The translations under genes were made by a program, and so were the position numbers. The notes under the pieces are model-generated. The model saw only the letters and a program-made list of their open reading frames with translations, was not told where the DNA came from and ran no database searches. A stretch of DNA of 64,000 bases, from NCBI GenBank assembly GCA_044345405.1, contig JBIJBE010000002.1:64001-128000 (forward strand), read 5' to 3'. Each line of letters opens with the position of its first letter. Within the stretch, counting starts at the first letter, position 1. This stretch comes from Bdellovibrionota bacterium. GTDB lineage: Bacteria > Bdellovibrionota_C > UBA2361 > OMII01. Below are positions 20,311 to 64,000 of this stretch, piece by piece.

Positions 20311-21420
20311 ATGTCATCACTCGTGCTACGGGGAAAAACAACAAACGCGGAGAAGGTGTGGCTACGCATCTCAGCGTTCCTTTCGCTGAAGTCACCAGCT
20401 ACTCGCGTGACCTACTCAGGAATCATCGCTGAGTGGTGTCGCTTCCTCCGCACCGAACCGGGCACTCCTGAAGCATCTGAAGCGATAATCGAGGCGACCG
20501 ATCTTCACGCTATCGCGTATCGAAAATTCCTTGAGCAGAAACCGGGCGAAAAGCCACGCATGGCTCGGATGGGTGGTAGAGTTTCAGCTGAGCGAGGGAT
20601 TACGCTTGAGCGAAATTCCGGTCGTGGAGTCAAGAAAGATGGATTAGACGCGACCCAATCCAACGCCACCATTCACAAGAAGTTCGCGGCACTCAGGCGG
20701 ATCTATCGCATGCTCGTATCGAGTAATCTCGGTATCGCTGAGAACCCTTTTGAAGCCGATAGGGTACCTCCTCCTCCCAAAGACGCCGGGCGAAAGCGCC
20801 CTACTCAGATGATCGACTTTGAGCTCGTCATGGAGATCGTCTCCATCCCTGACACGAACACACCGAAGGGCCGTCGAGATAAAGCTATCCTCGCGACTCT
20901 CTTCGGAGGCGGACTGCGACGAAGTGAAGTGGTCGGTCTCCGCATCGGGGACATAAAGAAAACATCCTCCGGAACCACCTTTCTCTACCTCCGACACACC
21001 AAAGCCAAGAAAGACGCCGAGCAGGCTATACCCCGATGGGCGGCGGACCCTCTGTGGGAGCTCGTTCGAGAGCGTAAGGCCCAAGGCGCTATGGACGGCG
21101 ACTATCTCTTCGTTGGCTTCACCGGAAAGGGTGGGCAAACGATCACGACCAAGCCGATGTCCGATACCGGGCTCTATCTTCTCTTTAAGCAATACTGCAT
21201 GGCTGCTGGCGCAGGGACCTACGCCACCCCCCACTCGGCTCGCGCCACAGCGATAACGAAACTCCTGGCGGACGGAATACCACACCGTGAGGTTCAGGAG
21301 TTCTCCCGACACTCCAGCATTCAGATGGTAGAATGGTACGATAAGCGACGATTTAGCGTTGAGGAGAGCCCAGCCAAGGAGCTTTCATACGACAAACCAC
21401 GCGGCAAGGGGCGTCGATAA
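20311..21420 (+). CDS. Tyrosine recombinase/integrase (XerC/D-like), stand-alone
   Basis: GRRDKAILATLFGGGLRRSE (Arg box I), TPHSARATAIT (HxxR), SRHSS..MVEWY (His, catalytic Tyr). Confidence 0.9.
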   Translation: MSSLVLRGKTTNAEKVWLRISAFLSLKSPATRVTYSGIIAEWCRFLRTEPGTPEASEAIIEATDLHAIAYRKFLEQKPGEKPRMARMGGRVSAERGITLERNSGRGVKKDGLDATQSNATIHKKFAALRRIYRMLVSSNLGIAENPFEADRVPPPPKDAGRKRPTQMIDFELVMEIVSIPDTNTPKGRRDKAILATLFGGGLRRSEVVGLRIGDIKKTSSGTTFLYLRHTKAKKDAEQAIPRWAADPLWELVRERKAQGAMDGDYLFVGFTGKGGQTITTKPMSDTGLYLLFKQYCMAAGAGTYATPHSARATAITKLLADGIPHREVQEFSRHSSIQMVEWYDKRRFSVEESPAKELSYDKPRGKGRR

Positions 21421-49523: not shown

Positions 49524-51542
49524 ATGGCTGATACGCGGGCAATCACTAGGGTCCTGATCGCAAATCGCGGCGAGATCGCGCGAAGGATCGTTCGCACCTG
49601 CACTCGTCTTGGAATCGAGACCGTCGCGGTGTACACCGATGTCGACGCTCATGCGCCGCATGTTCGTGAAGCGACCTTTTCTGAAGCTCTCGGCACACCA
49701 GAGTCATACCTCTCGATTGAGAAGATCCTCGAAGCAGCGAAGCGCTCCAAGGCCGATAGCGTCCACCCCGGTTACGGCTTCCTCTCCGAGAACCCCGACT
49801 TCGCCGCCGCCGTGCGAGACACCGGACTCACCTGGATCGGCCCTACAAGCGAAACAATCCGGAAGCTCGGAAGCAAGACCGCGGCGAAAGAGTTGGCTCG
49901 CCAGGCAAACGCCCCAACATCTCCAACACTCATTCTCCCCCCTGGCTCCACCGCCGACCGCGCGAGCGCCATAGCGAAATTCGGCGAGTCCGTTGGGTTC
50001 CCACTAATCTTAAAAGCGGCAGCGGGAGGTGGAGGTCGCGGCATGCGCTTCATCAATCCCGAGAGCGACATCGCCATGGAGCTCGACAGCGCGCAGCGAG
50101 AATCGCTCAAAGCGTTCGGAAGCGATGAGGTCTTCGTTGAGAAGTGCATCACCCCCGCTCGGCACATCGAGGTGCAGATCGTAGGTGACACACACGGGAA
50201 CGTGGTGGCACTGGGGACTCGCGATTGCTCGCTGCAACGAAGTAATCAAAAGATCATCGAGGAGGCACCGGCCGTACATCTCGCACCGGGAAGCGAAGCG
50301 AAACTCCTTGAGGCGGCGACGAACCTCGCTCGCGCGGCCGGATACACAAGCCTCGGCACCGTTGAGTTCCTCTACGGGCAAGATGGGTCACCCTATTTTC
50401 TTGAGGTAAACACACGACTTCAGGTTGAGCATCCCGTCACAGAACTCGTCACTGGGCTCGACCTCGTGGAGCTTCAGCTCCGCATCGCAGCCGGCGAGAC
50501 CCTCGCGGCGTGCGGCGTCACCCACACACCGGAACCACAGGGGCACGCCATCGAGGCGCGATGGTGCGCTGAGGAGTTCACCGACCGATTCACCACAGCG
50601 ACCGGCATCGTGCTCGATATCGAGGTACCGCAGCCAGCGGCCCGCGGCACGATGGTGCGTGTCGATAGGGGCGTTGAGCCGTGCTCGGAGGTTACCCACT
50701 ACTACGATTCACTCATCGGGAAAGTTATTGTCTACGCCCCCTCACGAGATCGCGCGATTGAGGCGCTCGATGACGTGCTCTCACGTTCCCGACTCAGTGG
50801 CGTTCGAAACAATCGCAACCTCCTCTTGCATCTCCTTCGAACGCCAGAGTTTAAGGCGCTTCAGCACACCGTACAGGGAACGAAGCTCCTGCTCCCTTCA
50901 AGTGAGCAAAACTCAGCGATCGTTCGTGAGGCGCACGTTATCGCGGCGGCGGTTCGATGCGCGACACCAAACTCCGCGTGGGCGTCGCAGGGACCATGGT
51001 CCTCGACGACAGCGCCCGATGCACACATCTCCTATCCATGGACAACGAGCGAGCACGGGAACGCTCTCTCAAGCACAACGAGACAAGACGGAAATTCATT
51101 CGTCGTGTCGGTAGACGGGCATTCCGAAACCATTACTTTCACGGAAGGGCCATTCCTGAACGGACTCGGCACCACAGCGACCCTTTCTCTCAACGGAGGA
51201 GCACCAAGCTCCGTATCGCTCTACCGCGACGGAAATGACCTCTGGGTTCATTCGAACCGAGGAACGGTCGTGCTCCACCAACCAGCGATCGGCGAACGCT
51301 CAGGCGGTGCCGGTAGTAGCTCAGCAAACGAGATCCGCTCAACGATCCCCGGTAAGGTCGCCGCGGTTCTCGTCAAAGAGGGAGATACCGTCGAGCAAGG
51401 AGCTACCCTGCTCGTGCTTGACTCTATGAAGATGGAGCATCCGATTCGCGCGACGATGAATGGAAAGGTGGCAAGCTTGCCGCTGCAGGTCGGCACGATC
51501 GTACACGCGGGAGCCCTGCTCGTGTCGCTAGAACCACATTAA
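49524..51542 (+). CDS. mccA: Methylcrotonyl-CoA-type carboxylase alpha subunit (biotin carboxylase plus biotinyl domain)
   Basis: IANRGEIA, HPGYGFLSEN, GGGGRGMR, EVNTRLQVEHPVTE, biotin motif DSMKME. Confidence 0.9.
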   Translation: MADTRAITRVLIANRGEIARRIVRTCTRLGIETVAVYTDVDAHAPHVREATFSEALGTPESYLSIEKILEAAKRSKADSVHPGYGFLSENPDFAAAVRDTGLTWIGPTSETIRKLGSKTAAKELARQANAPTSPTLILPPGSTADRASAIAKFGESVGFPLILKAAAGGGGRGMRFINPESDIAMELDSAQRESLKAFGSDEVFVEKCITPARHIEVQIVGDTHGNVVALGTRDCSLQRSNQKIIEEAPAVHLAPGSEAKLLEAATNLARAAGYTSLGTVEFLYGQDGSPYFLEVNTRLQVEHPVTELVTGLDLVELQLRIAAGETLAACGVTHTPEPQGHAIEARWCAEEFTDRFTTATGIVLDIEVPQPAARGTMVRVDRGVEPCSEVTHYYDSLIGKVIVYAPSRDRAIEALDDVLSRSRLSGVRNNRNLLLHLLRTPEFKALQHTVQGTKLLLPSSEQNSAIVREAHVIAAAVRCATPNSAWASQGPWSSTTAPDAHISYPWTTSEHGNALSSTTRQDGNSFVVSVDGHSETITFTEGPFLNGLGTTATLSLNGGAPSSVSLYRDGNDLWVHSNRGTVVLHQPAIGERSGGAGSSSANEIRSTIPGKVAAVLVKEGDTVEQGATLLVLDSMKMEHPIRATMNGKVASLPLQVGTIVHAGALLVSLEPH

Positions 51543-51563
51543 ACAACCTATGAATTGATAATT

Positions 51564-52209
51564 ATGAAGCTCGGAACAATCAGCATTGTACTCGTGCTCC
51601 CGGCTCTACTTGGTGCGCTTGCGTGGCATTCTTATGTTCTATTTCTCTATCGGGTTGCCTATCGGTTGGCTTGGGTTGAAGAGAATCTTATCCTCTCGGG
51701 AATCCTCGGTTGTACCTATCTCTTCCTAGGCCTCTGCGCCCTTGCACTCACGAGCTATTACGCGGTCCGCACAGCATCTAAGTGGCTAATCGTGAAGATG
51801 GGGCTGTCAGCACTACTCACACTATGCTCGGTCGCATCGTTTTTTGTAGGCGCGTACCTTGGCGAGCTCTGGGCCGTTACTGGCGCCAAATCATATTTGG
51901 ACGGCGTTGTTCGCTCCGCTAATGACTATCTGCAAAAAAAATGGGGAATATCCCGAGTCCTTAGATAAGCTCGACCTCCCTGCGATGCCGCGCTTAATAA
52001 TGGAATCAGCAGACAGCAACAAAAAGCAAGAGCACAAGTCTTTCACTGTGCCGTACCAACGAATTGATGGTCGATCAATCATAGTGGGCTTCGAATACAG
52101 GAAGGGTTTCAGCAACGACGACTGCGCAAGTTATAAATGGACCACAAATAACCCGAGGTGGGTGTGCACATGCCACGGCTGTCTTACCGACAATCCGAAT
52201 CGACGATAA
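51564..52209 (+). pseudogene. Membrane protein gene split by a frameshift in an A8 run (or a sequencing indel)
   Basis: Removing one A from 51934-51941 joins ORFs 51564-51968 and 51859-52209 into ...ANDYLQKNGEYPESLDKL... Confidence 0.65.
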
Positions 52210-52276
52210 GCTCTCTGGCAATAACCCCATCCCGGGATCTGGATTCAGGTTGCCTCGATAAACCGCGGCAAGGCGA

Positions 52277-52645
52277 TCACTGGTAGATCGTTTCCTTCAG
52301 CCGCTTCAACAACATCAACATAAAGCCAGATGAACAGAGGTGAGGAAAGAAGCTTTGATTGAGCTTTTCAGCGTTGACTGCCACGGCAACAAGCTTAGTG
52401 ACGGTCGCCGCATCTGCTGAAAGGATCTTCTCCGGAGACTGAAGAAAGGGCCTCAGCTCCTCAATCCAGCCCATCCAATCAACATCCTCGGAGCACAGAC
52501 CGCTCCCCTTAATGCACTCTTGCAGATCTCTCACCTGCGGAGAGTATTCACCGGTAGTGATATACACTGAATGTGCGTCACGTAATCCGTCAGTCTCAAG
52601 GAGTGGAATAAAATCGAATAATCGCGTCAACGCCGCCTCGTCCAT
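52277..52645 (-). CDS. Hypothetical protein (DUF6508-like, tentative)
   Basis: ATG at 52645; DW..W...ILSAD...LV pattern; the longer ORF-track start lies inside the duplicated fragment. Confidence 0.6.
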   Translation of the reverse strand: MDEAALTRLFDFIPLLETDGLRDAHSVYITTGEYSPQVRDLQECIKGSGLCSEDVDWMGWIEELRPFLQSPEKILSADAATVTKLVAVAVNAEKLNQSFFPHLCSSGFMLMLLKRLKETIYQ

Positions 52646-52739
52646 TTTCTCGGTATACCACACGAGAGCGTGTTCGACTATGACACAGAGAAGCCTTCCT
52701 TGCCCCTGAGCAGACCGCGGGCGACGTGAGAGGTGAAAA

Positions 52740-52920
52740 TCACCGAGCGTCGTTACAGAGGTCAGTAAGGAGCGATACAACGTTAGCGTTAAACTCGCGT
52801 TGATTCCGCAACGCTGGACCGAACACGGCGTTGATGACCGGTTGAAGCATCCGCTTACCGAACACGATAAACGGCCCAATGATCTTACGGTGCGAGGTCG
52901 GAGTCTGGGGCCGAACATCG
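52740..52920 (-). repeat. Orphan 3' fragment of the gene at 62902-63315 (left att-like direct repeat)
   Basis: 181 bp matching 62902-63082; 52864-52920 is identical to 63026-63082; encodes DVRPQTPTSHRKIIGPFIVFGKR...LTDLCNDAR*. Confidence 0.93.
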
Positions 52921-53173
52921 AAGGACCTCCCGCATCGCCTTTATAAGCGCACAGGAGGGAAGATCATCGAAGCGTAGAGTCGCTGATTCCAACCCCTGCC
53001 CCACAGCGCATACTCGGGATCTGCCGAGGAATTCTCAAAAGACACGCCTGCTGCGGCGGAGTCGATTTTTCGAACACTCCAAGAGGCTGGGAGGCGGTAC
53101 CCGATATACATACAGGAAGAATAAAGAAACCGCCGCCCTACTCATCCCTACCTCAGGGCTCATCCCTGGCGCA

Positions 53174-54175
53174 TCACCGCCGCGCAACGGCCCTCTCGAT
53201 TGGATAGAAGGAGAACGAGTATTCCTTTAAAACTGCAATCACCGCCCAGTCCCTAAGGACGTGCCCGAATGCCTCTTGCAGCGAATCGGTAAGCTCTCCT
53301 ATCTGCTCGGGGCTCTCCACTTCACAACGCATGATATAGTCCCAGACACCGACGAGTCGCATCATACTCACAATCGAACGCTGCTGTTGGCACCATCGCA
53401 AGATACTCTTGTGCATCTCAGCAGAGAGTGTATTGCTTGCAATCTGAATTCGGTATACTTGCATGCCAAGGCGAGCCGGCGAGACGAGATACGGAAAACC
53501 TGTTATAACCCCACTCTTAGTCAAAGCCTGTATTCGATAACCAATAGTAGACGAAGGGAGTCCGGTAGCGGAGCTTATATTTCTTAGCGATTCCGCGCCG
53601 CGACCACCTAATACTCGCAATATAGCGTGGTCGACCTCGTCGATGCTGACGATCCCAGACCCCGGCAGCGCCTCAAATCTTCGGCTATGCTTCACGCCCT
53701 CCGGGGCGAGGTATTTCCTCCCGAACCACCAGTATCCGATCGAGAGGCACGAATCTCTCGTATCGAACATGCCCGGCGCGCGAGCGTCGAGCTCCTCTAG
53801 GCGCCGAGCCACGTCAAGCGTATTCATCGCCTCAATACCGATATGATAGTCATACTTACCGGCCGTGCGATAAAACCATCTGATCCCGGGGGATTCCGTC
53901 ACAGCCTGGGTAAGTCTTGCGCTGAGACTCTTTTTATCCTTCGCTGGAGAGAAGAAAACCTCAAGCTCGGTCGCCCCGAGCCGGTAGGTGTCGACAAAGA
54001 CAGCCTGCGAGACAAGCCCCTCCTTGGCCCAACGGCTCATCTTCCCCTGGAGAGCGCTCTCTTTTATCCCTAGAGATTTTGCGAGCGAGCTCAACGGCTC
54101 GTTACCATGGAACTGAAGCGAGTACAGCAGGAACTTGTCTACATCTGAAATTTTTTGAATTTGTTGTCTTTTCAA
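53174..54175 (-). CDS. Tandem (double) Lrp/AsnC-like transcriptional regulator
   Basis: Two wHTH plus RAM-like halves: DKFLL...SLAKSLGI and DEVDHAIL...ISSATGLPSSTIGYRIQALTKSGVI; GKYDY and GVWDY motifs. Confidence 0.8.
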   Translation of the reverse strand: MKRQQIQKISDVDKFLLYSLQFHGNEPLSSLAKSLGIKESALQGKMSRWAKEGLVSQAVFVDTYRLGATELEVFFSPAKDKKSLSARLTQAVTESPGIRWFYRTAGKYDYHIGIEAMNTLDVARRLEELDARAPGMFDTRDSCLSIGYWWFGRKYLAPEGVKHSRRFEALPGSGIVSIDEVDHAILRVLGGRGAESLRNISSATGLPSSTIGYRIQALTKSGVITGFPYLVSPARLGMQVYRIQIASNTLSAEMHKSILRWCQQQRSIVSMMRLVGVWDYIMRCEVESPEQIGELTDSLQEAFGHVLRDWAVIAVLKEYSFSFYPIERAVARR

Positions 54176-54279
54176 TCGACTCTCTACTTACAAAAGACGT
54201 CAATAACTAGCGCTCTAAACTAAAAACCGAAGCCCGACAAGAATAAAGGATGCCAGAGGATTTGTTATAAAACCGATAC

Positions 54280-54320
54280 GAGAGAGAAGAAGGGAAGTGA
54301 ACCCCATGGCTCACTTCCCT
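54280..54320 (-). terminator. Probable terminator after csrA
   Basis: Perfect 10-bp stem agggaagtga / tcacttccct (54291-54320) followed on the minus strand by a pyrimidine tract. Confidence 0.6.
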
Positions 54321-54325
54321 GCTGG

Positions 54326-54493
54326 CTACCGTCCTGCGTCAGGGCGCGTTCTGGTCTCCTGCCTGAAAACTGGAACATTCCTTGGCGCTTCGATTCCAAG
54401 TTTAACCCTTCCGCGTTCAATTTCTAACACGGTAATTTTGATGGAATCACCAATGACTATTACCTGATCACTACGCCGCGCAAGAACCAACAT
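54326..54493 (-). CDS. csrA: Carbon storage regulator CsrA/RsmA
   Basis: MLVLARR..Q.IVIGDSIKITVLEI..GRVKLGIEAPRNVPVFRQE; start ATG 54493. Confidence 0.93.
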   Translation of the reverse strand: MLVLARRSDQVIVIGDSIKITVLEIERGRVKLGIEAPRNVPVFRQETRTRPDAGR

Positions 54494-54510
54494 TAGACTA
54501 TTCTCCCAAA

Positions 54511-54655
54511 AAAACTTCAAAGGCCCTCTGAGAAACCGTCGTCCCTCCTCTGGCATAAGAGTCAGAGCGACATACCGTTAGAGATAGAGAAAGTACAACC
54601 GTCAGTCAAACGACATGAACGGTGACCAACAATCGGCTCGAATATTGGACAAATA
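54511..54655 (-). promoter_or_regulatory. Conserved csrA upstream module, copy 1
   Basis: Palindrome TGACCAA-N15-TTGGACA (54623-54651), TTGACT-17-TATCTC (54609 to 54581), leader core 54524-54566. Confidence 0.75.
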
Positions 54656-54717
54656 CAGAGGCCTCGCCAACGAATATCTCAGGAGAGTGCGTAGCGAGAA
54701 TAAACGTAAATCAGACA

Positions 54718-56958
54718 TCACTCAATTCTCTCCGCCACCCAGTTGTACTCAAACACGCCACTCCGAGAACTAGATGAGCCGGTGACAACGGTTTTTCCAG
54801 ACAGCGCAGAGCCGTCCGCGGACAGAACTGCAGAGCTACTCAGAGTGGCTCCGTTGATGGACTTCGCAAGCAAGTTTACGTCAAAGCCGTGTTCCCGAGG
54901 CGTAACCGAGACCGATTCAAAGTGAGTAAAGAGAACCTCGCCGCTCAACCCCGATATACCCGTTACGCCAACCAGAGTGATAGAAGAGCCAATGAATCCT
55001 CTTTGGCTCTCGTCGAATATGAAATAACCCTCCCCCTCGGCGGGCGCCGTAAGGGACCATTTCCAAACCCCGGCCAAGTGAGAAGGAGTTGATGCGGAAT
55101 TGGACTTGCCGGCTGATAGCGGAGGATTCTGCTGCGGACCGGCGTCGACACGCGGAGTATCTGCTTGCTCCATCAACGGCTGGAGTGGTTCTGCCACAGT
55201 ATTCTCGAGCCAGTCGACTGAGCTGTAGGTTCTTAACTGACCGTCCACTAATCGCTCAAACCCTTTCGTCGCTACCAGCGCCCCCGGTTCGGTCTTATCC
55301 GCAATGTAAAACAGGGCGGTGACTGAAACATCAGAGAGTCGCCGCACCTCGCCTTCTTGCGACACGCCATCTCTATTCGCGTCGAACCACAGGCCCAATT
55401 TGTCGAGTTCGATGCCGTCTATCTTTCCATTTCTATCAGTGTCCATGGTCGCGAGCGCTTCGTACCCATCTTTCCACGGAATGGCGGTGTGTTGGTTGTC
55501 CGAAGCGGGCTGCTTTCCGCCGAAGGTCCAACTGCCGAATAGCTGTTCGGCCGAGGTGATTGAACCGGTGTGTTCAGCGTCAAAAACAAGGACAGGGAGA
55601 GACGCTGAACCTCTCCACAACCACGTATCCTGCTTCGAGTGAGGGTTAAGCTTGAATGACACCATCGTGCTCGGAAGCAGAGAGTAGTCACCAGCCCATA
55701 CCAGGGAGATCGGCGTAGCCATTTCAGCGTAGTAAGAGATAGATCCGCACGACATTTTGTCGGGCGTGATCGTCGAGACTGGAATCAGCTTGCAATTTTG
55801 ATCAATGTAGAGAGAGCCCGCCTTACACCCCGGCTCTTTGTCCTCTTTCGAGCCTCCCCCGATCTGTGCCTCACCTGCATGACCCAGGGAGTTCGCGGCA
55901 CCGTAACCTCCGAGGCAGTTGATGTACTGTTTATTTTGCTCGTAACTGTCTCTTGTCCGCTCGTTCTTCTCGAGAAGGTGTATCCAGAGGTAGCTGGTAA
56001 AGCACGTGGCGTACTTCTCCATCATTTCCTTGCCGGCCAGATCTACGCCCTTGGCCTGGGTGTATCCGAAATCTTGGTTATGACAGGTCTCGAACGCTTT
56101 TCTAGCAACGTCTTCGAAACACTGCAATGATTGCGCGCCCTCACTTGGTGATATCTTCAGATCTCCCAACTTGTGCGTGCTTCCGTGCTTGAAATTAAGT
56201 CCGTAGTAGCTGCAACTAGGGGTTGGAGTAGCCGTGCTTGTCGCCGTCGCCGTTCGAGTGGGTGTGAGCGTCGGAGTCCGGGTAGGAGTTCTCGTAGGCG
56301 TCGCCGTTCGAGTGGGCGTAAGCGTCGGAGTCCGGGTAGGAGTTCTCGTAGGCGTCGCCGTTCGAGTGGGTGTAAGCGTCGGAGTCCGGGTAGGAGTTCT
56401 CGTAGGCGTCGCTGTTCGAGTGGGTGTAAGCGTCGGAGTCCGGGTAGGAGTTCTCGTAGGCGTCGCTGTTCTAGTTGGGGTAGGCGTCGAGGTTGGTGTT
56501 TTCGTCCCCGAGCATCCGACTCTTCGGAGGTAGTTCAAGATGACTGCAGAATCGAGGGGCGTTACACTGCCATCCCGGTTTACGTCTAAAGCTCTCGAAC
56601 TTTCACTAACGGGGCCTGGCCCCTTCTTGATGAGAAACAGGTCGATCGCTTGAGCGTCCGTTTCATTAACCACGCAATCCTGATTGACATCATAGGTTGA
56701 TAAGACTCTGTCGCCGTTACAATCCAGCGGCGCGCAAGGCTTCGCTGTCGCCGAGCGGGTAGGAGTTGGGTCGAGCCGTGAGGGCGCATCCTCTGGGCTG
56801 CGAACGACCGGCGAGGCGTTACAAACCCAAGTCACGGGGTATGATACGGCCAAAAGACACGCGATCCCTAGGGCGCACAGGCGACTGCTGCAATAAAGAA
56901 CAACATTGGCGACCGCACCGATTAAGCCTTCAGCGAAGTCGTTCAGCTTGATCACCAT
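54718..56958 (-). CDS. Secreted protein with dockerin-like EF-hand pair, Pro/Thr linker and Ca-binding-loop C-terminal domain
   Basis: [12 protein letters not shown] and [12 protein letters not shown] dockerin-type loops; TPISLVW...EQLFG...[18 protein letters not shown]...[15 protein letters not shown] pattern seen in large secreted RTX-associated proteins. Confidence 0.75.
56245..56471. repeat. 54-bp coding tandem repeat, four copies plus a partial
   Basis: Units start at 56245, 56299, 56353 and 56407; encode [18 protein letters not shown]. Confidence 0.95.
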
Positions 56959-57559
56959 CCCCTATTCTCCTCTAAGGCGTATAGCAGCCAAGGATCCCTC
57001 GTGCACCTCCCTAAACATCACGGAAGAAGAATGCAAAAAACTTCCGAAAACCATCCGCGACCAGAGGGAACGGCAAATGCCGGGCGGTGGCCACGGCACC
57101 ACAAAATACGCGAGTCGGCTCGCCCTCCCGATGCTAGCCATACCATACTAACTGTTGGGGGCTGTCGTCCGTTCTCGGACGAAACTTTACGTTTACAGCC
57201 AGTTTTGAGAAAGACCAAAAAATAGGAAGATTTCGGGTGCAAGAATGGGTAATGCGAAGGCACCGAACACATGGTCACCTTGTTTCAGCACCATACATCC
57301 TCAGGGAACCTTGCCTGCGGACTACGTTCATACCAGTGAGAGTAGCGGGCTTCCTTACCCAGGTTTCTCAGGGCTTTGAGAACGATCCCAGTGGGCAAGG
57401 TCATGCTGGAGGGGATTCCGAACGACTTTGCCCTTTACCGCGGTCAAACTAGCGGCGGCGGTCGCTTCTTGTGAGGGAAGGTATTTAAAGAGCTGTGGAT
57501 TAAGGGCGGTGCGTTAGCACTAGGTATTTGATCAGTCCGCCTGGTGTTCATGCGCCGGA

Positions 57560-58232
57560 AACACGAAAGCCCTCAGTGATTGTGGAGTTCAGACCGGAGC
57601 GGTCTTGAATGGACTGCCGGTCTCTGACGTGAAAGCGCTAACTGAACTGTCAGTTAACTGTTAATGCGCGTCACTTCCTTGGCTGGTAGAGCTGGGTTCG
57701 TCAGCCGCTGCCTCGCACCAGAAAACTGACCTTGCCATCAAAAGAGCCCCTTACCAGTTTGCCCAGGGCCGGCAATGCCCCTCAAAGATCCCGGTGTCGG
57801 CGCTGATCGGGTTTGTGGCTCTCGACGGAACGCTTTCCGCCAAACTGGAGGAGGGGGTGACGGTATACTGCGATGTCCTTGAGGAACTCAGAAACCATAC
57901 TCGCCGCACTAACGCGAACCTCAGTGTCTATTCTTGTTGGACATCCAAGTGAGCGCTGCGCAACTAACGCGGTACAAAATGAATCAAACTCCGAAAGCCA
58001 TTTGGAGGCAGATACTTCCGCTAATAACAAGGGGTCGAGCACCGAAAGTTCGATTGCAACGAACGACTGCTGGCACTCCTTGACAAGACTGGCCTGCGAC
58101 AAACCCGACACTCCATCGTCTTGCGTTATCAATCACGGCGAACACTCGGATAGCTCTGCCGTCGATGTTCCGGTGCTATTTTTTGGGGGCAGCAGAACAG
58201 GCGCCTCCGATCTTCAACACAAACCGCTCACT
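57560..58232 (-). pseudogene. Decayed paralog of the double Lrp/AsnC regulator
   Basis: Collinear fragments ERFVL...PKKIA, GLSQASLV...IELSV, EVRVSAASMVSEFLKDI, FGGK, ALP, SGLNSTI resemble DKFLL...PLSSLA, GLVSQAVFV...TELEV, GIEAMNTLDVARRLEEL, FGRK, EALP, TGLPSSTI of 53174-54175; several stops and frameshifts. Confidence 0.5.
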
Positions 58233-58301
58233 TCTTATTAAATCAGCTATCAGGATTACGTCGCCAGCTTTTCGGTTCAGACCTAATAGTCCTATTTTCA
58301 T
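58233..58301 (-). pseudogene. Truncated csrA remnant (copy 2)
   Basis: LLGLNRKAGDVILIADLIR aligns to the CsrA N-terminus MLVLARRSDQVIVIGDSIK, at the same position relative to the upstream module. Confidence 0.6.
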
Positions 58302-58307
58302 CCTCAC

Positions 58308-58452
58308 AAACACTCGAAAACCCTCTGAGAACCGTAATCCCTCCTCTTGCATAAGAGTCAGACCGACACACAACTTGGAGCTAGAGAAACCCAAGATCTC
58401 TCGCAAACTACGTAAAGTGCATACAACTAATAGCCCGAACATCGGTCAAACG
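58308..58452 (-). promoter_or_regulatory. Conserved csrA upstream module, copy 2
   Basis: ccctctgagaaccgtaatccctcctcttgcataagagtcaga (58321-58362), TTGCGA-17-TAGCTC, degraded palindrome. Confidence 0.75.
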
Positions 58453-58513
58453 TGAGTCAGGACCAAACCCGAGCGGAACTCCCAGGAGCACCCCCCTCAG
58501 TTTGACAGGGGCA

Positions 58514-61500
58514 CTAAGAACACTGACTGTTAAAGCGAGGAAGCTGCGTTGATACCTCCAGAGTTCGATTATACAAGGTTGTTCCCGTGGCAGCACGGGC
58601 CGCATCGCTTGAACTAAGGCTACGGCGCCGTGCTTTCTTAAGTGTCGACGCCGCTCGCTTCGTGAGGCGGTGAAGCTGCTTCGCGCGACCGGTTATCTCA
58701 GTGATATTTGATGAAGTCTGAATGGCCGCGCATCCAACGCATGATTTAGTCACCAGCGGGAAGCTCGACCATATGCTTTTCCATTGCGCAAGGTAGAGGT
58801 CCTGGGCCTCCTCCTCGTATGAAGCAGCGAGGTCCAAAAAGGTTGACGCGTTCGATACGCGTCTGATGCGACTCGCTAAATAGCGCACGGCAGACCGCTG
58901 TCGCGAGGCGAGATTATCGAGCTGTGACAACGTATCTTTGTTGTCGGCTTCGTTACACGAGATCTCTTCAACGGTACATCGCTGAGTCTGCGCCGAGGCC
59001 TCGACGGCGGCACTACCTAATGTCCACGTGATCACACTCGACGAGCTGGTGTTGTCACTTTCCGGAGTCGCGAAAGGGACAACCATCGTGAAGACATTAC
59101 TAAACGCGCCTCGAAAGAAGGTCGTCGGTTGACCCGGATTCGCCACGCCTGGATCCACGGAATTCCGCGGGCCATAAGGAATTGCAACAGAGGATAGTTC
59201 ATCACTCCTGTAACCGAAGTGTGCTAACAGGCTCCCGTCTTGCAGGACATCCACACACTCGGCAATCGGTGTTACCTTGTATTGTGTGTCAGTTTGAGTC
59301 TCTGTTGCTGACGTTGTCGCCGTAGGCGTCGGTGTCTTTGTCAGCGCTATGACCTCGCATGTTGCCGACGGTGTCGCCGTGGGTGTCGGTGTCTTCGTCG
59401 GCATTATGACCTCGCATGTTGCTGAAGGTGTCGCCGTAGGTGTCGGTGTCTTTGTCGGCACCACCTCGTCGCACTCGACATTGTCTTTTGGTGAGGAACA
59501 TCCCGGATCCAATCCATCAATCAGACCATCTCTGTCGTCATCAACGCCGTTCTGACATTGAGAGGTGCCATCAGCCTCATTAGTATCTTGAGAACTTGAG
59601 CATCCTGGGTCAGCCAAATCGATAAGGCCGTCTCGATCATCGTCCGTACCGTTTTGGCACTGAGAGGTTCCGTCACCCTCATTATTGTCTTGAGGGCTTG
59701 AGCATCCTGGGTCAGCCAAATCGATAAGACCATCTCGATCATCGTCCGTACCGTTCTGACACTGAGCAACTGGCGATGCCTCGTCGCTATCATCAGGTCC
59801 ACTACAAGCGAAGTCCTGCAGGTCGATCGCACCGTCTCTGTCGTTGTCCACACCATCCGAGCACTGACTCGCAATTTGGAAGCGATACGCGACCTTTGCG
59901 GCCTGCCACGGACCCTTCTGGCCACCTTGCCCGATTCCTCGTACGAACCACTGGTACTGCCCTCGCGGCAAAACCGTTGTTGGCGTGTAAGAAGTTGACG
60001 TCAGGCTTGCCTGCCTAATGACCACCTGGCCGTTCGCGGGGGAGATTTGTCTAACCACGATCTCGTAAGTTTTTGCCCCGGCAGCGGCCTTCCAGCGAAA
60101 AGCTACTTCAGGAGCTGAAATTACTCCGTTCTGAGGAGGGAATACCTGCGTTGGTAAGCCGATAGGTTGCGCACGAGCCTCGTTGTTGAGGGTACGGTCG
60201 TATGTCGCACTGCTCGTGAGGTCACGCCAGCATCCGGGGTCGGACGCGTCCGTCACTCCGTCAGAATCGTTATCCGAGCCATCCTGACACTGTGAGGTGC
60301 CATCAGCCTCATTAGTATCTTGGGGACTTGAGCATCCTGGGTCAGCTATATCGACAAGGCCATCTCGATCATCGTCCGTACCGTTCTGACACTGAGCAAC
60401 TGGTGATGCCTCGTCATTATCATCAGCTCCACTACAAGAGAAGTCCTGCAGGTCGATTACACCGTCACCATCATTGTCTAATCCGTCCGAGCACTGGCTT
60501 GCAATTTGGAAGGTAAACGCGACATTTTCGGACTGCCAAGGACCTTTCTGGCCGGCTTGACGGACTGCTCGTACAAACCATTGGTACCTCCCCCGCGGCA
60601 AAGATACCAGTGGCTTGTAAAACGTCGAGGTTATGTTTGCCGTTCTTATGACCTCCTGGTTTGCTTGAGGAGAGACCTGTCTGACCGAGACCTCATAAGA
60701 TTGCGCTCTAGCAACAGCCTTCCAGCGGAAAGCTAATTCGGGCGCCGTAATCACAGCGTTCCGAGGTGGAAACACCTGGGTTGGTATCCCTAGTTCTGGT
60801 TGCGAGCGAGCTTCGTTGTTGAGGGTACGATCGTAGGTCGAGCTGTTCCCGACGTCACGCCAGCACCCAGGATCTGCCGCATCGACCACTCCGTCGAGGT
60901 CGTTATCTGAGCCATCCTGACACTGAGAGGTTAGTAGACCTTCGTCGTTTAGGTTGGGGTCATATGAGCTAGGGTTTTCAGGGTTAGCCCAGCATCCGGG
61001 GTCATATCGGTCAGACAGGCGATCCCCATCGTTATCGAGACCATCGTCGCATTCCGTCCCACCTGAGCACAGATACGAGAAGTAAGCGTTTACACATCCA
61101 TTATTAAAGCCAAGAACCGCCTGGCCGGTGGTGGGATCATACAAAGCTCCCTGGATGCTCGTGGAACTGCACTTAGAAGAGAACGTGTTAGTACCGGCGG
61201 CACACCTTCGATTTCTTCCGATAGTTTGACTTCCAGACGCTTGAGTTGATTTGAAAGAAGTTAGATGAGCGGTCGTCGCTGTTCCCGGCTGGGCGCATAT
61301 ATATCCACATTCCGAGATTCGGCCAGCTCCGCTTTGGGACGCGGTAATAACCCCATCCTCCCTGTTGTAGGAACATTCTACCGTTCCAGTACCGGCGCCG
61401 CCCTGTCTGACCTTTTGGAAATTTGCCACACTGACGACGCAAGTGAGACCAGCACCAATTGAAGTACCAGAGGAAACATATCCTGCCGTAAATTTTTGAC

Positions 61501-61825
61501 TTGCTCCTCGAGAATTATGGCACACATATACGCCCTTTCCGTCGGCGTATCGATTGCTGGCAATGGAGACACGGTTATTAGCAAGGCGTACCTGGAAGAA
61601 CGGCTCCTGATTCGCGGAGTTGTCGGATCGAACCCAAAGATAATTCCCCACAGAGGTAAAGCACTGGTCATAACCATCAGTGGACACGCTTTCTGTTGCC
61701 GAGATGTAGCCCATCTTAACGCCGCTATCCCGATATATCTCCTGGGCATTGATAACCGCCCCCCCAAGGAAGACTGACAAAAGTGAACAGAGCGTTGCGA
61801 TTCGAAGAGATAATCTTGTTTTCAT
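58514..61825 (-). CDS. Large secreted Cys/Asp-repeat surface protein with two FN3/Ig-like domains
   Basis: Signal peptide; about nine C.[DN]G.D[ND]D.DG..D..D..C repeats; duplicated PTQVFPP...FRWKA...YQWFVR domains; PT linkers; C-terminal helical region with CxxC. Confidence 0.82.
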   Translation of the reverse strand: MKTRLSLRIATLCSLLSVFLGGAVINAQEIYRDSGVKMGYISATESVSTDGYDQCFTSVGNYLWVRSDNSANQEPFFQVRLANNRVSIASNRYADGKGVYVCHNSRGASQKFTAGYVSSGTSIGAGLTCVVSVANFQKVRQGGAGTGTVECSYNREDGVITASQSGAGRISECGYICAQPGTATTAHLTSFKSTQASGSQTIGRNRRCAAGTNTFSSKCSSTSIQGALYDPTTGQAVLGFNNGCVNAYFSYLCSGGTECDDGLDNDGDRLSDRYDPGCWANPENPSSYDPNLNDEGLLTSQCQDGSDNDLDGVVDAADPGCWRDVGNSSTYDRTLNNEARSQPELGIPTQVFPPRNAVITAPELAFRWKAVARAQSYEVSVRQVSPQANQEVIRTANITSTFYKPLVSLPRGRYQWFVRAVRQAGQKGPWQSENVAFTFQIASQCSDGLDNDGDGVIDLQDFSCSGADDNDEASPVAQCQNGTDDDRDGLVDIADPGCSSPQDTNEADGTSQCQDGSDNDSDGVTDASDPGCWRDLTSSATYDRTLNNEARAQPIGLPTQVFPPQNGVISAPEVAFRWKAAAGAKTYEIVVRQISPANGQVVIRQASLTSTSYTPTTVLPRGQYQWFVRGIGQGGQKGPWQAAKVAYRFQIASQCSDGVDNDRDGAIDLQDFACSGPDDSDEASPVAQCQNGTDDDRDGLIDLADPGCSSPQDNNEGDGTSQCQNGTDDDRDGLIDLADPGCSSSQDTNEADGTSQCQNGVDDDRDGLIDGLDPGCSSPKDNVECDEVVPTKTPTPTATPSATCEVIMPTKTPTPTATPSATCEVIALTKTPTPTATTSATETQTDTQYKVTPIAECVDVLQDGSLLAHFGYRSDELSSVAIPYGPRNSVDPGVANPGQPTTFFRGAFSNVFTMVVPFATPESDNTSSSSVITWTLGSAAVEASAQTQRCTVEEISCNEADNKDTLSQLDNLASRQRSAVRYLASRIRRVSNASTFLDLAASYEEEAQDLYLAQWKSIWSSFPLVTKSCVGCAAIQTSSNITEITGRAKQLHRLTKRAASTLKKARRRSLSSSDAARAATGTTLYNRTLEVSTQLPRFNSQCS

Positions 61826-62126
61826 GACGATATTTGGACCTTTGTAGTCATCCTTTGCCGAGTTTCACTGTTTAGTGGCACCAATCTTTCTTAAGAAGGT
61901 CGACAAGTCGTTAACCCGACCTTCCCACACACCTTCCGTAAAACCCGCCAATCCCTTCTCCGTTGTTCGGCACATCGACATATGAGGGGCTCCGGGCCCA
62001 GCTACACGCCGATTCCCTTGAGAGACGAAAGAACGAAGCATTCTGGAGGACCTGCTCAAACAACCTTTTTTTGAGACTCAAAGGGAACGCACACCCGTGC
62101 CCCCCGCTGCTAGCTGACGTCCCCAG

Positions 62127-62280
62127 TCAGAAGTCCTTTTCCCCCTGCCTGACCACGGGAACATTCCCTTGGGCTCTGGATGCCCAATTACATTCTGTCG
62201 CCCTTGACGTTTAAAACCGTAACTCCGACGCTTCAACGAACAAGAATTGCCTCATCATGTTTCCGGGCTATCGCCAATCT
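62127..62280 (-). pseudogene. Full-length csrA pseudogene (copy 3)
   Basis: LAIARKHDEAILVR*SVGVTVLNVKGDRM*LGIQSPR(+1)NVPVVRQGE: two in-frame stops, one frameshift, no ATG at the expected start. Confidence 0.85.
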
Positions 62281-62296
62281 GTGCGCACTCTTCTTA

Positions 62297-62442
62297 AAAA
62301 CGTCAAAAGCCCTCTGAGAAACCGTCGTCCCATCTCCGGCATAAGAGTTGAATCGACCTACAGAACGGAATTATAGAAAACAAAAATCTCTGTCAAACGA
62401 CGTAAGGTGTGACCAATTAACGGCACGGATCTTGGTCAAAAT
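62297..62442 (-). promoter_or_regulatory. Conserved csrA upstream module, copy 3
   Basis: Perfect TGACCAA-N15-TTGGTCA (62410-62438), TTGACA-15-TATAAT (62396 to 62370), leader core 62310-62352. Confidence 0.78.
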
Positions 62443-62499
62443 AGTATTCCGCCCTCCCCACAGCGACTCGCGCATGAACAGTTGCGATTGGCTTCACAA

Positions 62500-62901
62500 A
62501 CTCAGTTTTTGGGTTCTATTTCGGTTACCATCACATCGTTACTCAGCAAGCACGAAACACTACCAACCCTTTTTCCCATCCACCGTGACGGATACGACCT
62601 CGGAATGCACTCCGAGCGAGGACCGGTAATTCTTAACAAAGCGACGACCGAGGAGCTCACGGGGGACGCGCAAGCGACACAGCGAACAAGATCCGATCCA
62701 CGCTCCCCGAGAAAGTTGCGGCGATGCTCGTTAATGCTGGAGATATCGTTGAACACTGCGCGATACTGCTCGTGCTCGACTCGATGAGGATGGAGTACCC
62801 GATTTGGACGTCGGTACGTGGGAAGATCTCGACTCGTTAAGCTTACACCTGGAACGGTCGTGCAAACGGGGTTGCCTCTTGAGGCAGTTGAACAGGAATA
62901 A
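62500..62901 (+). pseudogene. Decayed 3' fragment of mccA (biotinyl domain)
   Basis: HRDGYDLGMHSERGPVIL..(fs)ANKIRSTLPEKVAAMLVNAGDIVEHCAILLVLDSMRMEYPI..GK(fs)..GTVVQTG...EQE* aligns to the C-terminus of 49524-51542; left boundary approximate. Confidence 0.85.
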
Positions 62902-63315
62902 TTACCGCGAGTCGTTACTCAGGTCGGTCAACAGCGACACCACATTAGCGTTAAACTCACGCTGATTACGGAGCGCAGGACCAAACACCGCGTTAATAAC
63001 CGGTTGAAGCATTCGCTTCCCGAGAACGATAAACGGCCCAATGATCTTACGGTGCGAGGTCGGAGTCTGGGGCCGAACATCGGCGGAATAGATCTGACAG
63101 AGCCGTCTGAGAAGCTCAACTCGCTCTGGCGTCGCGGTGAATCCATCTCGGGTCACTGAGAATGAGAGCTGTGCGATATGGCGCTCATCCGCCTCGCTGA
63201 ACTTACCAGCGGCGCGCAGGTCGGCCACCCGTCGGGCGAGCGCATCGCGAACATCGGTGTTATTCTCCCCCGCGACGGAGAGCCAGTTTGACTGTGGTGA
63301 TGTAGGAGCTGCCAT
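62902..63315 (-). CDS. Hypothetical protein (integration target gene)
   Basis: 137 aa from ATG 63315, 13 bp after the upstream stop; TSHRKIIGPFIV...NQREFNA segment resembles helical regions of surface-polysaccharide methyl/glycosyltransferases. Confidence 0.75.
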   Translation of the reverse strand: MAAPTSPQSNWLSVAGENNTDVRDALARRVADLRAAGKFSEADERHIAQLSFSVTRDGFTATPERVELLRRLCQIYSADVRPQTPTSHRKIIGPFIVLGKRMLQPVINAVFGPALRNQREFNANVVSLLTDLSNDSR

Positions 63316-63328
63316 AGCGGCGAGCGTA

Positions 63329-64000
63329 TCACAAGAACCGGTGGCGATGAAGCTCCACAAAACGGAGGCGGTGGAACTCCTCCCTTTTGGTGATATATCC
63401 GGCATCTAGCCCCGCCATCGCGGATACCAACATCCCGGCCCCCTCAAGCAAACCAGCCCCCGTTTGGTAGATCCGGATACCATCAGCGAACACCACTTCC
63501 CCCCGCTTTACCGCCGGTAAGGAGTCCCATTGGGGCGCATCCTCAAGCTTTCGAAGGTACCGGACGCTCTCTTCCAGCGTCTTCCCGCGCGGGGCAACCA
63601 TAATCGCGTCAGGGGCGAATGCCGCCAGCTCCTCCCATGTGGTCGGCTTGCTGATTTCGCGCTGCTCCGAATTCATTGTGCGGCCCGACACAAGTCGAAT
63701 AATATCAGGGATCCAACATCCCGCGATCTCCAAGGGCTCAACGCTTGAGAGCACAACCGTTTTCTTGTTTCGCAACCGCTCGTAGAGGTTCCGCCCCCAA
63801 TCAAGGAGCTGCGATTTTAGGCGCTGCGCTCGATCACGTCCGGTTGGCCCCATGCCGATAAGCGTTCCCAGATCACCGTAGGCATCAAGGAGATCGTTAA
63901 GGCTCGCGATATCAACGGACTTTACCCGAACGTTCTTCATCCAGTGGTGCTGGAAATATTCCTGCGCAAACCCGCAGAAGTCGTCGGGGTTATCAGAAAC
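63329..64000 (-). CDS. ABC transporter substrate-binding protein, BtuF/Fe-siderophore (TroA-like) family, 5'-truncated by the window edge
   Basis: PL..AGCWIPDIIRLVSG, TWEELAAFAPD, WDSLPAVKRGEV..ADG; frame open to the window end. Confidence 0.75.
   Translation of the reverse strand, partial: VSDNPDDFCGFAQEYFQHHWMKNVRVKSVDIASLNDLLDAYGDLGTLIGMGPTGRDRAQRLKSQLLDWGRNLYERLRNKKTVVLSSVEPLEIAGCWIPDIIRLVSGRTMNSEQREISKPTTWEELAAFAPDAIMVAPRGKTLEESVRYLRKLEDAPQWDSLPAVKRGEVVFADGIRIYQTGAGLLEGAGMLVSAMAGLDAGYITKREEFHRLRFVELHRHRFL

Follow-up and report, generated by a model that had tools for sequence, protein, structure and literature searches.

A decayed mccA 3' end beside a small conserved gene at the inner edge of a strain-variable island

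Introduction

How did the dead 3' end of an mccA gene come to lie stop codon against stop codon with a small conserved gene, 11 kb away from the intact mccA of the same chromosome? The question is raised by a 64,000-nt stretch of DNA (hereafter the window; G000:C85:64001–128000) from a metagenome-derived assembly of 3.59 Mb in 85 contigs. A first-pass annotation, made from the letters of the window, had proposed that an element took up flanking chromosome from a relative in which the two genes were adjacent, and that the mccA piece is a fossil of this previous host. We find that the piece belongs to a discrete island with gene-end repeats at its borders, and that it has an ancestry and a degree of decay of its own. 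It may have come in with the island or stayed behind in place, and the two possibilities are weighed below.

Results

The mccA remnant

The stretch 62473/62524–62901 of the plus strand is a nonfunctional copy of the mccA 3' end, covering the last ~130 codons. A blastn search with positions 62300–64000 against the remainder of the window gave two strong matches, one between the remnant and the 3' end of the resident mccA (62579–62804 vs. 51220–51446; 70.2% over 228 nt, E=2e-22), and the other between two copies of the small gene's 3' end (62900–63082 vs. 52738–52920; 85.8% over 183 nt, E=4e-57). In the 3.59-Mb genome, mccA 3' sequence occurs in the resident gene and in the remnant, with no further copy.

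Comparison with mccA proteins divides the remnant into three frame segments (about 62473/62524–62664, 62661–62837, and 62821–62898), and it thus has undergone two frameshifts. There is also an internal TAA at 62838–62840. The biotinyl motif, which is DSMKME in all functional mccA orthologs, is DSMRME in the remnant, with AGG at 62787–62789 in place of the lysine codon. Further replacements occur at residues that do not vary among functional orthologs (PGK to PEK, EHG to EHC, MEHP to MEYP, and IRA to IWT). The middle segment resembles Pfam Biotin_lipoyl (E=7e-4) with a score of 19.8 bits, under the 22.1-bit cutoff. A functional biotinyl (BCCP) domain in the alpha subunit of methylcrotonyl-CoA carboxylase has an open frame and the lysine of the M-K-M motif; the remnant, with two frameshifts, an internal stop, and MRM, has neither. 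The blastn match, the reading of the frames, and the AGG codon bear out the first-pass description of a diverged, twice-frameshifted mccA end in which MKM had become MRM.

The extent of decay was gauged from columns that are invariant across 11 functional mccA ends. The remnant is altered at 16 of 104 such columns. By the same count, eight controls that group with G000 in the tree have 0–4 changes, and the two most divergent mccA sequences have 12 (G014) and 20 (G013).

At its end the remnant meets the small gene. Its TAA (62899–62901) touches the TTA (62902–62904) that is the stop of this minus-strand gene, exactly as had been read at first pass. The small gene, whose ORF stays open up to 63405, has a homolog in 38 of the 41 genomes searched in the order, and no family match to it was found in Pfam or NCBIfam. 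The features of the locus are collected in Table 1.

Table 1. Coordinates of features at the two ends of the island and within it (positions in the window)
Feature	Position	Strand	Remarks
Resident mccA, intact	49524–51542	+	672 aa; biotin carboxylase and Biotin_lipoyl (Pfam)
Membrane-protein gene, frameshifted	51555–52209	+	two overlapping ORFs, 51555–51968 (137 aa) and 51859–52209 (116 aa)
DUF6508 gene	52277–52645	-	Pfam; G044 ortholog lies between mccA and small gene
Displaced small-gene end, left copy	52740–52925	-	last 61 codons and TGA stop; no 5' part
57-nt core, left copy	52864–52920		100% identical to 63026–63082
Island cargo	52926–62472		~9.5 kb
Tandem Lrp/AsnC-like regulator	53174–54175	-	cargo
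Secreted dockerin/EF-hand protein, 746 aa	54718–56958	-	cargo
Repeat-rich secreted protein, 1103 aa	58514–61825	-	cargo
mccA 3' remnant	62473–62901	+	codons about 533/548 to 672; start confident from 62524
Abutting stop codons TAA/TTA	62899–62904		zero spacer, as TAG/CTA in relative G010
Small conserved gene, intact (the "target gene" of the first-pass annotation)	62902–63315	-	137 aa from ATG 63313–63315
57-nt core, right copy	63026–63082		identical to left core
Peripla_BP_2-like gene	63329–64000	-	upstream of small gene; syntenic in relatives; runs off window

The mccA/small-gene site in relatives

The proposal of a relative with adjacent genes implies that genomes with mccA directly convergent on the small gene exist, and such genomes were found. 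Within the sequence available, the two genes are convergent in 16 of 25 loci examined, and in seven of the 25 the spacer is at most 45 nt (0 nt in G010, -4 in G019, 8 in G001, 12 in both G011 and G015, 23 in G014, and 45 in G012). Stop-to-stop adjacency of mccA and the small gene is thus common in the genus and represents its ancestral state. The remnant records this former stop-to-stop placement of two genes that now lie 11 kb apart.

At least nine different states of the site occur among the loci examined. A DUF6508 gene lies between mccA and the small gene in G044, three other genes do so in L055, and an MBL-fold gene is found at the site in L056. In L054 the two stops are separated by a spacer of about 305 nt, and the same holds by inference for G020, whose contig tail beyond the small gene has no similarity to the window and is accounted for by an L054-type ~305-nt spacer. 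The G020 assembly is interrupted on both sides of this spacer, which in the G020/L054 lineage holds repeated ACGT-rich motifs (L054:500–806, the tail of L005, and the head of L033). L057 has an mccA 3' remnant of its own (L057:884–1278), 40 codons in length and ending in VQAGELLVPLEPQ before its stop, like G011 and G015. This remnant sits between the small-gene stop and a functional mccA end whose allele type is not the same. The site is a recombination hotspot in this uncultured freshwater genus labeled Bdellovibrionota. The relatives' records are MAGs from rivers, ponds, and lakes, labeled Pseudomonadota or Bdellovibrionota.

The island and its direct repeats

The remnant occupies the right inner margin of a strain-variable island of 10,162 bp. 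Direct repeats of 186 nt, which consist of the small gene's 3' end (52738–52925 and 62900–63087, exactly 10,162 nt apart), form the borders of this island. Repeats derived from the target gene thus stand at both ends, as in an integrative element. The end sequence of the small gene is found in these two copies only in the genome, and the left fragment has no start codon apart from an internal Met.

The repeat is a mosaic. The core has 0 of 56 differences, as compared to 26 of 124 in the 3' part (Fisher p=4e-5), which extends for 124 nt from the core to the stop at 79% identity (98/124). Between the left and right copies there are 25 nucleotide differences before the stop, and at only three of these does the amino acid change. 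A core without differences beside a 3' part with 26 is the trace expected of a crossover within the core.

The affinities of the two copies are not the same. The 3' part of the left fragment matches the G044 ortholog at 108 of 124 positions, as against 98 of 124 for the right copy, and the left fragment continues into the DUF6508 gene, as the G044 ortholog does. The right copy is evenly L054/L055-like along its length (87/82% in the 5' part, 88/95% in the core, and 82/85% in the 3' part), and a breakpoint marking an imported 3' end was not detectable in it with 124 nt.

The resident mccA locus

The gene order at the resident locus, from left to right, is mccB, mccA, the membrane-protein gene, the DUF6508 gene, and the small-gene end fragment. 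The membrane-protein and DUF6508 genes are the two extra genes that, as reported in the first-pass annotation, part mccA from the small-gene 3' end. In metagenome locus L055 the membrane-protein gene is one uninterrupted ORF of 205 aa, and the G000 gene therefore carries a frameshift. A variant that is 1 nt shorter at 51934 makes up all of the depth in metagenome run X20 and is minor in run X9; judged by its position, it may restore the membrane-protein frame. A 213-aa ORF at 52277–52918 was dismissed as an artifact. Its first ~90 codons read the left small-gene fragment in another frame, and the real DUF6508 start is near 52645.

The resident mccA is itself a mosaic, with a breakpoint at about 50800–50870 as located by sliding-window identities (150-nt windows). 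The 5' two-thirds of the gene, up to about 50720–50800, has 86–98% identity to L055, 83–95% to G020, and 73–87% to G044. From about 50870 on (the 3' ~700 nt), G044 is closest at 70–79%, and L055 and G020 drop to 55–73%; the identity range extends to the last window before the gene end. The DUF6508 region is 81.6% identical to the G044 spacer over 488 nt. Together, the mccA 3' windows, this DUF6508 identity, and the 108/124 match of the left fragment show one contiguous G044-like block, which takes in the 3' end of the resident mccA along with the DUF6508 gene and the left small-gene fragment. The resident gene thus has a replaced 3' part, as would be expected under C-terminal displacement. The 3' end of this housekeeping carboxylase gene has been swapped at least two times, in G000 and in L057.

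Phylogenetic placement of the remnant

Raw nucleotide identities between the remnant and the first ten orthologs were nearly flat (55–61% among the six nearest) and gave no placement, which became possible only once metagenome loci were added. In a maximum-likelihood tree of mccA 3' ends (12 sequences, 314 aligned columns, HKY+F+R2), the remnant pairs with L057 (aLRT 87.6, UFBoot 89). The pair falls within a clade that also holds G020, L054, and L055 (95.7/95), apart from the resident mccA end. Monophyly of the remnant and the resident end was rejected by the AU test (p=0.0009 and 0.002 in two runs), as was a grouping of the remnant with the resident end and G044 (p=0.0017 and 0.0015). A remnant that is sister to L055 (p-AU 0.13) or lies inside (L055, G020, L054) (p=0.14) was not rejected. 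The 5' two-thirds of the resident mccA belongs to the same clade as the remnant.

The remnant is thus not closest to this genome's own mccA end, and this bears on its origin. A local tandem duplication of the mccA/small-gene region as it now stands, with later decay of whatever was redundant, accords with the same order and orientation of the two pieces and with the occurrence of each only twice in the genome. Such an origin is nonetheless very improbable, given the rejected monophyly (p-AU 0.0009–0.002), the two genes that intervene at the present locus as against a remnant-to-gene gap of 0 nt, the left fragment that is nearer to G044 than to the right copy, and the unequal decay of the two pieces described below. 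A local duplication of the present gene end is ruled out by the tree and the AU tests.

Unequal decay of the two dead pieces

The left small-gene fragment has 0 of 88 changes at columns that are invariant in 11 other small-gene copies, all apparently functional, and 0 of 57 in its diverged part alone. The 16 of 104 changes in the remnant differ significantly from both counts (Fisher p=3e-5 and 7e-4, respectively). Leftovers of one displacement event would be of equal age, which is not what the counts indicate (16/104 vs. 0/88). The unequal decay (p=3e-5) therefore rejects a single-event model, in which both pieces became useless at once in this chromosome, barring selection on the left fragment, for which no support was found. 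The difference is consistent with the remnant having been old by the time the present junctions arose.

An in-place origin in two steps is the main rival to arrival with the island. The remnant would be the lineage's own mccA 3' end, left in place by C-terminal displacement. In the first step, an old event, the island and a replacement mccA end would have inserted into mccA near codon 533, anchored by homology at one border and joined illegitimately at the opposite one; the native mccA end would have stayed beside the native small gene, stop against stop, and degenerated. In the second step, an island-free conspecific strain would have donated a G044-like block, in which the membrane-protein and DUF6508 genes lay between an mccA 3' end and 186 nt of the small gene. 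The foreign hitchhiker would then be the left gene fragment and not the mccA remnant. The mosaic resident mccA argues for this sequence of events, with its breakpoint at about 50800–50870 between an L055-like 5' part and a 3' part closest to G044, as do the place of the remnant in the L055/G020/L054/L057 clade (sister to L055 at p-AU 0.13), the right small-gene copy without a breakpoint, and an island without a recombinase gene. L057 provides an independent case, in which a 40-codon, G011/G015-like remnant lies between an imported-type functional mccA end and the small gene. The cost is two rare illegitimate joints, along with a donor fragment that must stop just past a core identical to that of the recipient. 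Moreover, the nearest of the relatives sampled (L055, L054/G020, and G044) do not have the island, and the single-event version fails on unequal decay (p=3e-5). We consider the two-step origin possible, with a probability clearly short of even.

Natural polymorphism in lake metagenomes

Island sequence is present in 20 lake-water metagenome runs, eight of which may be source samples. Contigs were compared at 90% likeness from four (X1, X9, X13, and X20) of 23 runs listed. A 2,074-nt contig from X20, at depth 7, joins 51438–52815 to 62978–63674 and omits exactly 10,162 nt. Its two pieces differ from the window at 36 and 22 letters, or 58 of 2,074, so that the flanks are ~97% identical. This contig is the island-free allele of a close strain.

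The joint in the X20 contig is 76 nt from the stop, within a 5-nt window between two sites that distinguish the copies. The allele is a hybrid, being left-type near the stop and right-type beside the core, and because of this it may be a deletion derivative instead of an ancestral empty site. It arose either through deletion, when the two repeats recombined, or as a recombinant in its own right, and does not indicate the direction of the event. Empty sites are thus represented by the X20 contig, which is possibly secondary, and by G044, L055, and L054, all of which are without the island.

The X1, X9, and X13 contigs end within the core, at 52891–52893 and 63053–63055, and the connectivity of the arms consequently rests on the original assembly. 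These ends would suit either pairing of the arms, and the genome is an 85-contig metagenome assembly. The assembly might therefore have taken a path through the 57-nt repeat, with the real molecules being an island-free chromosome and a separate 10.16-kb circle that bears the gene end, core, and remnant. We regard this as improbable. In X1, the depth of the island (12.1–14.2) equals that of the flanks (12.2–13.7), the cargo has no replication gene, and the 57-nt repeat is shorter than usual reads, such that the original assembler could bridge it.

Island cargo

The Lrp/AsnC-like regulator and the 746-aa dockerin/EF-hand protein belong to large lineage-specific paralogous families, with 8 and 7 matches, respectively, in G000. 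Most genomes of the genus have many paralogs of both. The best matches of the two (53% for the regulator and 71% for the 746-aa protein) are both on unrelated contigs. No second copy of the island or its junctions was found among 35 genus genomes and 4 metagenome loci, and no island gene occurs at the same site in the relatives G044, L055, and L054/G020, which lack the island.

A Pfam scan of the island ORFs identified no recombinase domain. In a search of the genome by family, for PF00589, the three matches are all outside the island (C49, C7, and window positions 20815–21345). The island accordingly does not have the site-specific recombinase of its own that is expected of an integrative element. 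The Pfam scan of ORFs likewise identified no replication gene in the cargo.

An intergenic repeat is present in three copies (54340–54653, 58306–58450, and 62126–62440; 68–85% identical). It has a conserved core and is found in the genome only inside the island. Two of its copies are located upstream of the Lrp-like and 1103-aa genes and may constitute a shared regulatory region. An Rfam scan of 51500–63400, which included this repeat, gave no match. Each of the two large secreted proteins has a Pro/Thr-rich linker encoded by in-frame tandem repeats (56219–56488 and 59303–59473; periods of 54 and 57 nt), and contig depth in run X1 doubles at these repeats. The ~1.5 kb at 57000–58500 within the island has no ORF above 122 aa and could hold a decayed gene.

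Discussion

Origin of the arrangement

We favor, at slightly less than an even chance, a model in which the remnant was carried in with the island. The remnant would be a nonfunctional, hitchhiking piece of mccA kept at the genus-ancestral stop-to-stop junction. It would have been born earlier, in a closely related chromosome in which mccA adjoined the small gene, and would have decayed because only the gene end was needed. The moving unit was most likely the 10,162-bp block that runs from the 57-nt core through the cargo and the mccA remnant to the final 124 nt of the small gene. This block would have entered an island-free conspecific chromosome, already ordered mccA, membrane-protein gene, DUF6508 gene, and small gene, as a circle and through a single Campbell-type event of homologous recombination within the 57-nt core. 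The crossover would move the chromosome's own gene end (52740–52863) to the far side of the island, and the block-borne end would now complete the small gene. A recipient with a G044-like gene end and a block with another allele would yield the identical core beside the diverged 3' part. A homologous crossover requires no recombinase, and none is present. We infer a circular intermediate, recombination of the RecA type and not of the integrase type, and insertion as opposed to retention as the direction of the event.

Several observations count against carriage with the island. The island has no integrase or mobility gene, and neither it nor its junctions have another copy in the 35 genus genomes and 4 metagenome loci. 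The right small-gene copy is evenly L054/L055-like and shows no import breakpoint. The clade of the remnant is that of the resident mccA 5' part, with a sister relation to L055 unrejected. The island-free X20 contig, being a hybrid, is possibly a deletion derivative, and the X1, X9, and X13 contigs break in the core, leaving the connection of the four arms unconfirmed by them.

The first-pass scenario of an element that took flanking chromosome from a relative with adjacent genes is partly supported. It is strengthened by the separate ancestry of the remnant and the resident mccA end, the discrete, repeat-ended unit, the island-free allele, the unequal decay, and the ancestral adjacency. Two of its terms are weakened. 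The island contains no integrase or other mobility gene, and the word "element" is accordingly an interpretation. The "previous host" may have been a close relative or the lineage's own earlier chromosome, the latter because the resident mccA is a mosaic, the remnant shares a clade with the 5' allele of the resident gene, and the AU test did not reject the remnant as sister to L055 (p-AU 0.13).

Carriage with the island has a broader implication, which we put forward a little more tentatively. A recombinase-free 10-kb cassette may move between strains solely by host homologous recombination, through the portable end of a host gene, and carry along a decaying piece of that gene's neighbor. If so, the decaying mccA piece would be a datable record of the chromosome in which the cassette was first assembled. 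Gene-end fossils of this kind make the history of an island legible from sequence alone, including its former neighbors and a rough age. For models of island growth through carriage of flanking DNA from earlier chromosomes, the locus supplies a concrete example that can be tested.

Comparison with known systems

Islands and integrative elements located in the 3' ends of tRNA, tmRNA, and protein genes bring with them a replacement gene end. Islands in tRNA and tmRNA genes were reportedly treated by K. P. Williams in 2002–2003. The present island resembles these in its gene-end direct repeats, the copy on the island side that keeps the gene intact, the original end displaced to the far side, and its presence or absence between strains. 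It differs in having no recombinase, in having an identical core 5' of a diverged 124-nt stretch, and in containing a dead piece of a convergent neighbor gene inside the unit. In specialized transduction by phage lambda, gal or bio is captured. The likeness is that chromosomal DNA flanking the attachment site ends up in the next host; unlike in lambda, no phage genes are found here.

In the tycheposon model of island growth in Prochlorococcus, elements are proposed to take up flanking DNA "from other hosts" through imprecise excision, a process likened to specialized transduction, and to leave it beside the attachment site (bioRxiv 10.1101/2020.12.28.424599). The mccA remnant would correspond to such captured flanking DNA. 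Tycheposons have tyrosine recombinases and tRNA-gene targets, whereas the present island has no recombinase and a repeat from a protein-gene end.

In Rhs, CDI, and T6SS effector loci, 3' ends orphaned by C-terminal displacement have been described, and the displacement is ascribed to homology-facilitated illegitimate recombination (PMC5361080). As in that description, the conserved 5' part stays, a new 3' part and cargo arrive, and the old end persists downstream as an orphan, a pattern seen here in the mosaic resident mccA and independently at locus L057. Unlike the polymorphic toxins of that description, mccA encodes a housekeeping carboxylase subunit, and the mccA orphan is decaying and has no immunity partner. 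The locus reveals no new kind of system.
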